A DNA stretch of 63,358 nt, counting the filler, from Collodictyon triciliatum (Eukaryota), in NCBI GenBank assembly GCA_043381765.1. It is 46 parts of 46 records of this genome, joined end to end, with 100 filler letters (N's around TTAATTAATTAA, not from the genome) between each part and the next. Parts side by side here need not be neighbours in the genome. Positions count along the whole stretch, not along the records: positions 15,222 to 16,503 come from JBHJMP010011562.1; 45 more parts are not named here. One strand, 5' to 3'. Positions 15,222 through 16,224 of the stretch are shown here, piece by piece. The position numbers were made by a program, and so were the translations under genes. Position 1 is the stretch's first letter. Each line of letters starts with the position of its first letter. The notes under the pieces are model-generated. The model worked only from the letters and a program-made list of their open reading frames with translations, was not told where the DNA came from and searched no databases.

Positions 15222-16224
15222 TTTTTGTTGATGAAATTGATTTGAATTTGAAATACCTTTCTTTCCAAACAATAATGACACCGCCAAGCCGTCTGTTTGT
15301 ATCATATATTTAAAATTATAGTCTTTTTGAGGAAAGACCGTCTTCTTCATTTCAAAGAAATCATCCCATATGGTCTCTTTGCATCCTGATATATTCTTCA
15401 TGAGTGATGTTTTCCAGATAAAACTAATAAATCTATCCAACATGCAGTATCTAGAGTAATATGACATGGTATATTGCTAGTTCTTACAGAGATTGGTTGA
15501 AACAGTTTGGCACCAATGTCTTCAAAATGGGATTCATGTAAATCAGACATGGAATGTACTTATTTGTATTGAATTTGACGTCATATTCGATACCACTTAC
15601 AATATCGCTGGGAATGATATGCTGCAAATGCGTTATAGTTCATCCTTTATATTGCTCCGGTATTTCGAGTTTCTTGATGATGGCTTTTTTAACTTTCGTA
15701 ACTCTGCCTTTTTAGTAGCTTCCGTAATATTCTCATCTTTAGGAACTGTTTGATTTGTTAAGCGCAATAACCTCTTTACAGAATGTTCCTGAGTGTTATT
15801 ACGATAAGCTGTTAACATTTGCTTCGCCAAGTACGGTAATAAATGAGACAGTCCAACCAACAGAAAGCGTTCTTCTCGGGACAAAAGGAATCGAAAATCA
15901 TTGAGATAAAAAGTCATCATTTCATCTCTCATATCTGGGTTTTCTTCTTGTGGGTTTATCTTGTGAAACTATTCCGACTGTCTTAAAAGCGTACAAAAAA
16001 AATATATTTCATCGATTGTTGGGAGCTGTTGTGAATTCAATATGTAGCATCTTGCAAACAAATAAGTGTTGGTAACCAAATTATGACACAATAAAACCGT
16101 ATCGTTGATTTTTTTAATAGTCATCCGCATTCTTTACTGTCGACTTTAGAGATATTTTTACATTTCGATGGTTTGGTTATACAGACTTTAGATTCTCAGA
16201 CTCGAGGCGTTTTCTTTTCTTCAT
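15222..16224 (-). pseudogene. Fanzor1 (eukaryotic TnpB-derived RNA-guided nuclease), N-terminal ~330 codons with stops and frameshifts; RuvC part lies beyond the contig end
   Basis: Reconstructed peptide: MKKRK..NVKISLKS..INDTVLLCHNLVTNTYLFARCYIL..LPTIDE..LSHLLPYLAKQMLTAYRNN..YDVKFNTNKYIPCLIYMN..KLFQPISVRTSNIPCHITLDT..IWDDFF..FKYMIQTDGLAVSLLF. These motifs, especially FxYxIxTDGxxVSLLF, are characteristic of Fanzor1. Confidence 0.85.

Follow-up and report, generated by a model that had tools for sequence, protein, structure and literature searches.

Two fragments of a Fanzor1-type gene, here called copy A and copy B, lie in the window, the whole stretch of 63,358 nt that was analyzed, which consists of 46 unlinked contigs of 1274-1298 bp each, sorted by length and separated by spacers of the form N44-TTAATTAATTAA-N44. 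Copy A is located on the contig at 15222-16503 and copy B on the contig at 53835-55109; both are on the minus strand and represent the 5' part of one repeat family, with 697 bp in common (15811-16503 in A versus 53835-54520 in B) at 87.4% identity. The family was absent from the other 44 contigs, both in a DNA comparison and in a tblastn search with 79 relatives. A sequence-only reading of this DNA had argued from the density of two copies in ~59 kb; the figure is numerically right, but because the contigs are unlinked, it is not a genomic density. The coordinates of all features are collected in Table 1.

Table 1. Features of the two Fanzor1 pseudogene copies, in positions of the window
Feature	Position	Strand	Basis or remark
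Copy A, Fanzor1 pseudogene, codons 1 to ~335	15222..16224	-	tblastn versus P0003, P0007, and P0098; profile
Copy A, frame segments (versus intact relative P0003)	16224-16114, 16112-15694, 15693-15533, 15532-15447, 15446-15222	-	
Copy A, in-frame stops	TAA 16179, TAA 16116, TAG 15971, TGA 15642	-	
Copy A, MKKRK basic N-terminus (NLS-like)	16210..16224	-	basic N-terminus kept in relatives (consensus MxxKK)
Copy A, KISLKS (KTSLKS in copy B and relatives)	16141..16158	-	first K aligns with SpuFz1 K25, WED domain
Copy A, LFQPISVRTSNIPCHITLDT	about 15446-15505	-	
Copy A, YMIQTDGLAVSLLF (TDGxAVSLLF), WED-domain strand	15267..15308	-	aligns with ~325-336 of SpuFz1
Copy A, noncoding leader / 5' flank	16225..16503	-	common to copy B, 87.3% identity
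Copy B, Fanzor1 pseudogene, codons 1-139, single frame	53837..54244	-	tblastn, profile; contig end cuts ORF
Copy B, in-frame stops	TAG 54010, TGA 53953, TAA 53899	-	
Copy B, leader	54245..54520	-	homologous to 16225-16503
Further upstream of copy B leader, 589 bp	54521-55109		no recognizable gene; ends in (GAAAAA)n-like microsatellite

Both copies start with ATG, reading MKKRKR at 16224 in copy A and MKKRKH at 54244 in copy B. Copy A comprises the N-terminal basic stretch, a WED strand, the REC domain, and a second WED part, and its 334 codons are colinear with residues 1-332 of P0098, the nearest intact relative; the part that is present is therefore intronless. It ends at position 337 of the 614 positions of the family profile, a few dozen residues short of the first aspartate of RuvC. 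Both copies are cut at contig edges before RuvC-I, so that they hold the REC lobe only (WED strand, REC, WED). Both contigs lack the catalytic half, the region of the omega-RNA, and the ends of the element, and nuclease function is therefore unreadable from copies A and B.

These observations agree with the sequence-only reading, which had described intronless and differently mutated copies (by our count, five frame segments and hence four frameshifts, plus four stops, in copy A; three stops elsewhere in copy B), an N-terminal KKRK NLS-like motif, here confirmed as a sequence motif, and the lack of RuvC residues or a transposase in this DNA. Of the motifs that it had listed, LFQPISVRTSNIPCHITLDT and YMIQTDGLAVSLLF are present in copy A and KTSLKS in copy B, but copy A itself reads KISLKS. 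The predicted N-terminal NLSs of Fanzors were functional in 21 of the 22 cases tested according to PMC10530073, and by analogy with these we infer, at the motif level, that the MKKRK stretch could have served nuclear localization.

Upstream of the gene fragments, the leader of copy A extends to the contig end, and therefore the left end of the element is not seen. The fold of the leader was not unusual (z -1.63; 13 of 200 shuffles folded as well), and Rfam gave 0 matches over the whole stretch, so that nothing points to a structured RNA in the leader. Inverted repeats of ≥14 bp were found on neither contig, and neither contig can span both element ends. When the transposases of the viral loci L001 and L004 were compared with the 46 contigs by tblastn, the best DDE_3 match had an E value of 1.9; the element may extend past the contigs. 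The 865 bp that lie upstream of copy B are free of viral and transposase genes.

Short-contig collections are enriched for repeats, and the 46 contigs range in GC from 0.29 to 0.52; given this spread, the set may mix compartments or organisms. The other contigs encode LRR, TPR, ubiquitin, Myb, Sir2, WD40-like, cadherin-like, and zf-RVT fragments, and many contigs terminate in microsatellites, a content that fits a eukaryote. Microsatellites of the types (AAT)n, (ATAACACA)n, and (GAAAAA)n-like lie at 15027-15121, 16604-16700, 54975-55109, and many other contig ends, and the assembly probably breaks there because of them. At 1386-2669 and 49707-50981 (-), open frames of 427 and 425 aa run from end to end at a GC of ~0.48 and carry bacterial-type cadherin-like, Big_9, and SibA Ig domains; these contigs differ in composition from the AT-rich ones and may thus have a different origin. 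The ORF at 52501-53148 (+), in which a zf-RVT domain was recognized (E 1e-6), is probably a fragment of a non-LTR retroelement, and its contig has short repeats in common with the contigs at 56587-57861 and 59337-60610. Other repeat families connect 37295-38573 with 51082-52359 (441 bp at 80.7% identity) and 41449-42725 with 51082-52359 (100 bp at 96% identity). On the GC-rich contig at 55210-56486 (0.52), long stretches stand open on either strand in several frames; all consist of a repeated unit, for example RKGSPLCRTSTKSASHKT, and the contig looks more like a tandem repeat than a gene.

Fanzor1 identity and the intact relatives

Copies A and B are Fanzor1 by homology. On their own, the fragments matched little: Pfam gave nothing above threshold for four fragments from the window, and a PDB sequence search gave 0 matches at E ≤ 10 for an 85-aa fragment and weak matches for a 166-aa fragment (GtFz1 0.014, PpFz1 0.88, and SpuFz1 1.3). 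Therefore, the link to characterized Fanzor1 proteins runs via intermediates and a profile. The 85-aa fragment matched proteins P0002 and P0003 at 49-52% identity, which in turn matched the three solved Fanzor1 proteins of the PDB with E values of 1e-10 to 6e-15. In a set of 1.84 billion representatives, the 166-aa fragment matched 77 proteins (E ≤ 1e-3), of which 20 are 620-761 aa in length.

A profile of 22 relatives (the 20 proteins of 620-761 aa, P0002, and P0003), in which no sequence from the window was included, recovered copy A in three minus frames (E 1.4e-48, 4.5e-14, and 3.4e-12; positions 1-337 of 614) and copy B with an E value of 1.5e-24 (positions 1-138). As a negative control, the best of the other 44 contigs reached an E value of 0.51 in the same search of 276 frames from the 46 contigs. 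Against the PDB (E ≤ 1e-3), the profile matched only SpuFz1 (2.1e-97), PpFz1 (7.2e-94), and GtFz1 (3.5e-67), all of them Fanzor1, and no chain of Fanzor2, TnpB, or Cas12. The family assignment made from the sequence alone is thus upheld. All of the at least 120 relatives among those listed, as well as P0002 and P0003, carry the label PF26935 (DUF8286), which is also named by the Atlas; our own Pfam scan of P0002, P0003, and P0098 gave no PF26935 match, and an Atlas search with P0003 gave no usable match.

The nearest intact full-length relative, P0098, has 648 aa and is 76% identical to P0003 and 52.5% identical to copy A (169/322). Its motifs VGVDPGK, NEFRTSKLCCNC...CLICKEC, and TRDFNSANNI make up a RuvC D-E-D site and a CCCC zinc finger, the latter with a Pfam score (PF07282) of only 13.1 bits. 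In alignment A2 of the relatives, D372 (DPGK), E530 (DE..TS), and R580-D581-N583 are nearly invariant and the CxxC...C pattern is kept; PF07282 (Cas12f1-like_TNB) was found in 13 of the 27 long matches at E ≤ 0.01, five of these above the curated cut-off. The aspartate of VDPGK in the intact relatives aligns with SpuFz1 D383, which PMC10432273 describes as a Mg-binding RuvC residue. The family therefore gives a profile match, and its full-length member P0098 has both RuvC and zinc finger, the two points on which the earlier identification had been made to depend.

Copy number and kinship with giant-virus Fanzor1

Outside the window, contigs of public sequencing runs match the family. Distinct contigs with ≥85% identity on the 1282 bases of contig A numbered 205 in run X2, 220 in X4, 76 in X3, and 3 in X1, these matches being assembled contigs, some of them metagenomic, whose counts and summed word depths are not copy numbers. 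Identities ranged from <90% to >99% (85-99%), and up to 27 contigs lay over a single position, a pattern that marks a diverged, high-copy repeat in the samples concerned. With two diverged copies in the window and hundreds of matching contigs in three runs, the family is multi-copy, as had been proposed. The share of contig A sampled words was ≤15% in any public run; the small word shares come from freshwater and subsurface metagenomes and from two coded organisms, A and B, and no RNA run was listed among the holders of these words.

In a set of 5.8 billion proteins, only three close fragments were found, at 76-80% identity, a number of little weight, since pseudogenes seldom get annotated as proteins. 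P0004 (139 aa), whose source contig is 714 bp long, aligns with copy B in one frame over residues 1-45 and in another over residues 36-106; some catalogued proteins of the family are therefore readings of frameshifted pseudogenes. A scan of metagenome contigs with the alignment of the sub-clade yielded a single locus (31% identity) and did not help to locate the element ends.

The nearest labelled relatives are on giant-virus contigs. An IMG/VR scan with a seven-row alignment gave 38 loci, many of them on giant-virus MAG contigs. A gene on one GVMAG contig, of 254 kb, shares 88% identity with P0007, the best full-length match of the fragment from the window. For P0003, the identity to the best viral ORFs is 43-44%. 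In the Atlas, the nearest large clusters consist to 92-100% of Viruses, most of these being Nucleocytoviricota. In these viral relatives, Fanzor1 lies in a unit of ~3.3 kb (L001:1627-4960 and L004:1630-4952) with sharp homology edges and perfect TIRs of ~32 bp, next to a divergently transcribed HTH + DDE_3 transposase of the Tc1/mariner/IS630 type. A transposase-like match flanks Fanzor1 in 22 of 39 loci. Although entered as three separate contigs, the loci L002, L004, and L006 (5280 to 7896 bp) show 100% identity along their full lengths. The 3.3-kb viral TIR units match the Mariner elements of Phaeocystis globosa virus in which Bao and Jurka described Fanzor1 (PMC3627910). The DUF8286 lineage is best known from giant viruses, within a mariner-type TIR transposon. 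The check for an associated transposase and TIRs that the sequence-only reading had suggested was successful in the viral relatives (HTH + DDE_3, ~32-bp TIRs); on the contigs of copies A and B, which are too short to span both element ends, no transposase and no inverted repeat of ≥14 bp was seen.

To place the copies among these relatives, two LG+G4 trees were built, both without an outgroup: a quick tree of 81 rows and a careful tree of 50 rows, for which 32 rows (duplicates and fragments) were dropped and P0098 was added. In both trees, copy A, copy B, P0005, P0098 (careful tree only), P0002, P0003, P0021, and P0042 form one clade of eight rows. Its SH-aLRT support in the quick tree is 95, and the careful tree gives 98/95. 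The viral rows, 34 in the quick tree and 22 in the careful one, all lie outside this clade. Its neighbors are unstable, being nonviral rows in the quick tree (96) and the viral group L001-L006 in the careful tree (88/89). Viral scans with P0098, P0021, and P0014 gave no relatives, single-protein scans reaching close relatives only. As judged from these comparisons, the kinship of copies A and B with giant-virus Fanzor1 is real, which agrees with the earlier remark that their motif set recalls giant-virus Fanzor1; however, from unrooted trees, neither a transfer nor its direction would follow. The virus-host exchange that had been suggested on the basis of the motifs is accordingly a putative one, the clade having no viral row and its neighbors depending on the tree.

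Instead of belonging to a host transposon family, could the two copies be pieces of an endogenized giant-virus insert, or could their contigs be viral? We consider this improbable. Although the nearest labelled relatives are the giant-virus contigs of the 38 IMG/VR loci (43-44% identity for P0003), the nearest large Atlas clusters are predominantly viral, and the careful tree sets the clade beside L001-L006, the clade itself is without a viral row, both copies are heavily decayed, the hundreds of diverged contigs in three runs fit a dispersed repeat, and the 865-bp stretch upstream of copy B holds neither a viral nor a transposase gene. The empty viral scans with P0098, P0021, and P0014 point the same way, but weakly, given their short reach.

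Decay of the reading frames

Copies A and B have diverged alike in noncoding and coding DNA, with 87.3% identity in the ~280-bp leader and 89.4% in the ORF. The substitutions between them fall on codon positions 1, 2, and 3 in numbers of 11, 14, and 18, and comprise 41 transitions and 37 transversions. Both copies are neutrally decaying pseudogene fragments, and purifying selection on an open frame is not supported. Near the frame changes of copy A, 1-bp indels separate it from copies in the public runs, and so these breaks look private to copy A. The two copies now do nothing.

The same 1-bp indels, together with very short contigs that are probably low-coverage pieces, could be taken to mean that the gene is intact in vivo and that its breaks are due to assembly or sequencing errors or to a variant genetic code. 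This seems very improbable, since (i) A and B are broken at different places, (ii) the codon positions are hit evenly and the leader is as diverged as the ORF, and (iii) ORFs of 427 and 425 aa stand open on other contigs under the standard code. A variant genetic code was rejected separately: TAA, TAG, and TGA all occur in frame across the two copies, and where aligned, the stops of copy A face K, Y, and K and one stop of copy B faces L, so that no single reassignment rescues the frames. The remaining alternative, an unrelated repeat ORF with a chance likeness to the N-terminal half of Fanzor, for which one could cite the fragments' lack of Pfam matches and the description of Fanzor N-terminal halves as highly variable (PMC3627910), is effectively refuted by the profile (E 1e-48 and 1e-24, with a clean negative control), the PDB matches, and the colinearity of the copies with full-length proteins such as P0098 that run on into RuvC and zinc finger.

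Very probably, therefore, copies A and B are 5' pieces, under neutral decay, of a multi-copy family of Fanzor1 mobile elements in the DUF8286 lineage, each on a small contig of its own, the two contigs being unlinked parts of an assembly that looks eukaryotic.

Place among known RNA-guided nucleases and significance

To our knowledge, no RNA-guided DNA endonucleases other than Fanzors are known from eukaryotes, and Fanzors are under development as compact genome editors. By analogy with characterized members, the ancestral active gene of the family would have encoded a protein of ~650 aa that entered the nucleus by means of its basic N-terminus and bound an omega-RNA produced from the 3' end of its element. 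Its RuvC D-E-D site, supported by a CCCC zinc-finger domain, would have cut guide-matching DNA flanked by a TAM, and such cutting would presumably have aided the persistence of the carrier transposon.

Among the solved structures, SpuFz1 of Spizellomyces punctatus (PDB 8GKH) aligns with the family profile from end to end (positions 3-607 of 614, E 2.1e-97). Residues H21, T22, and K25 of this chain match in number those named in PMC10432273, and the first lysine of KTSLKS corresponds to K25, a WED residue that contacts the guide backbone according to the same source. The Spu-1 elements of S. punctatus likewise occur in many full and partial copies, PMC10432273 reporting 42 loci (19 full-length) plus 134 "ghost" loci. 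In contrast to SpuFz1, to which pairwise similarity is low (E 3.7e-23 for P0098), copies A and B are broken and lack the entire NUC lobe, and no inverted repeats were seen on their contigs. The best single-sequence PDB matches of the sub-clade are GtFz1 of Guillardia theta (PDB 9CER) and PpFz1 of Parasitella parasitica (PDB 9CF0), with E values of 2.1e-28 and 2.7e-24, respectively, for P0098 and of 6.3e-15 for P0003 against GtFz1. The homology covers the REC lobe encoded by copies A and B, but these proteins are distant, the 166-aa fragment alone reaching GtFz1 only at an E value of 0.014.

The giant-virus Fanzor1 proteins, the closest labelled relatives, have the motif set and the basic N-terminus in common with copies A and B. 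They differ in being intact and in lying beside an HTH + DDE_3 transposase within ~32-bp perfect TIRs, whereas no transposase or TIR was seen with copies A and B. The architecture of the full-length relatives, with a RuvC domain split by a zinc-finger TNB domain, is also that of bacterial TnpB (IS200/IS605 and IS607) and Cas12; the large REC lobe of copies A and B, unlike these, is specific to Fanzor1. According to PMC10432273, Fanzor1 is known from giant viruses as well as from fungi, protists, arthropods, and plants, and viruses have probably spread it; its carriers include Mariner and other transposons as well as large DNA viruses (PMC3627910).

Being dead and without the nuclease half, copies A and B say nothing new on mechanism. 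Multi-copy Fanzors, their NLSs, their presence in giant viruses, and their spread by viruses are already published (PMC10432273, PMC10530073, and PMC3627910), and the sub-lineage and its hosts may already figure in the supplementary tables of PMC10432273 and PMC10530073. What the present finding offers is a modest addition to the catalogue, an apparently high-copy sub-lineage related to giant-virus copies, which could help to date virus-host exchange, given a proper assembly of the host genome. A bolder idea, which we hold to be unlikely but worth stating, is that the clade of P0098 and P0003, kin to the mariner-borne Fanzor1 of giant viruses, has been amplified to at least hundreds of copies in a freshwater eukaryote. 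If true, this expansion would exceed the maximum of 122 Fanzor copies per genome reported so far (PMC10530073). It would then also be a datable record of transposon traffic between giant viruses and their hosts and a natural pool of variants of a compact nuclease, in which members like P0098 are still intact.
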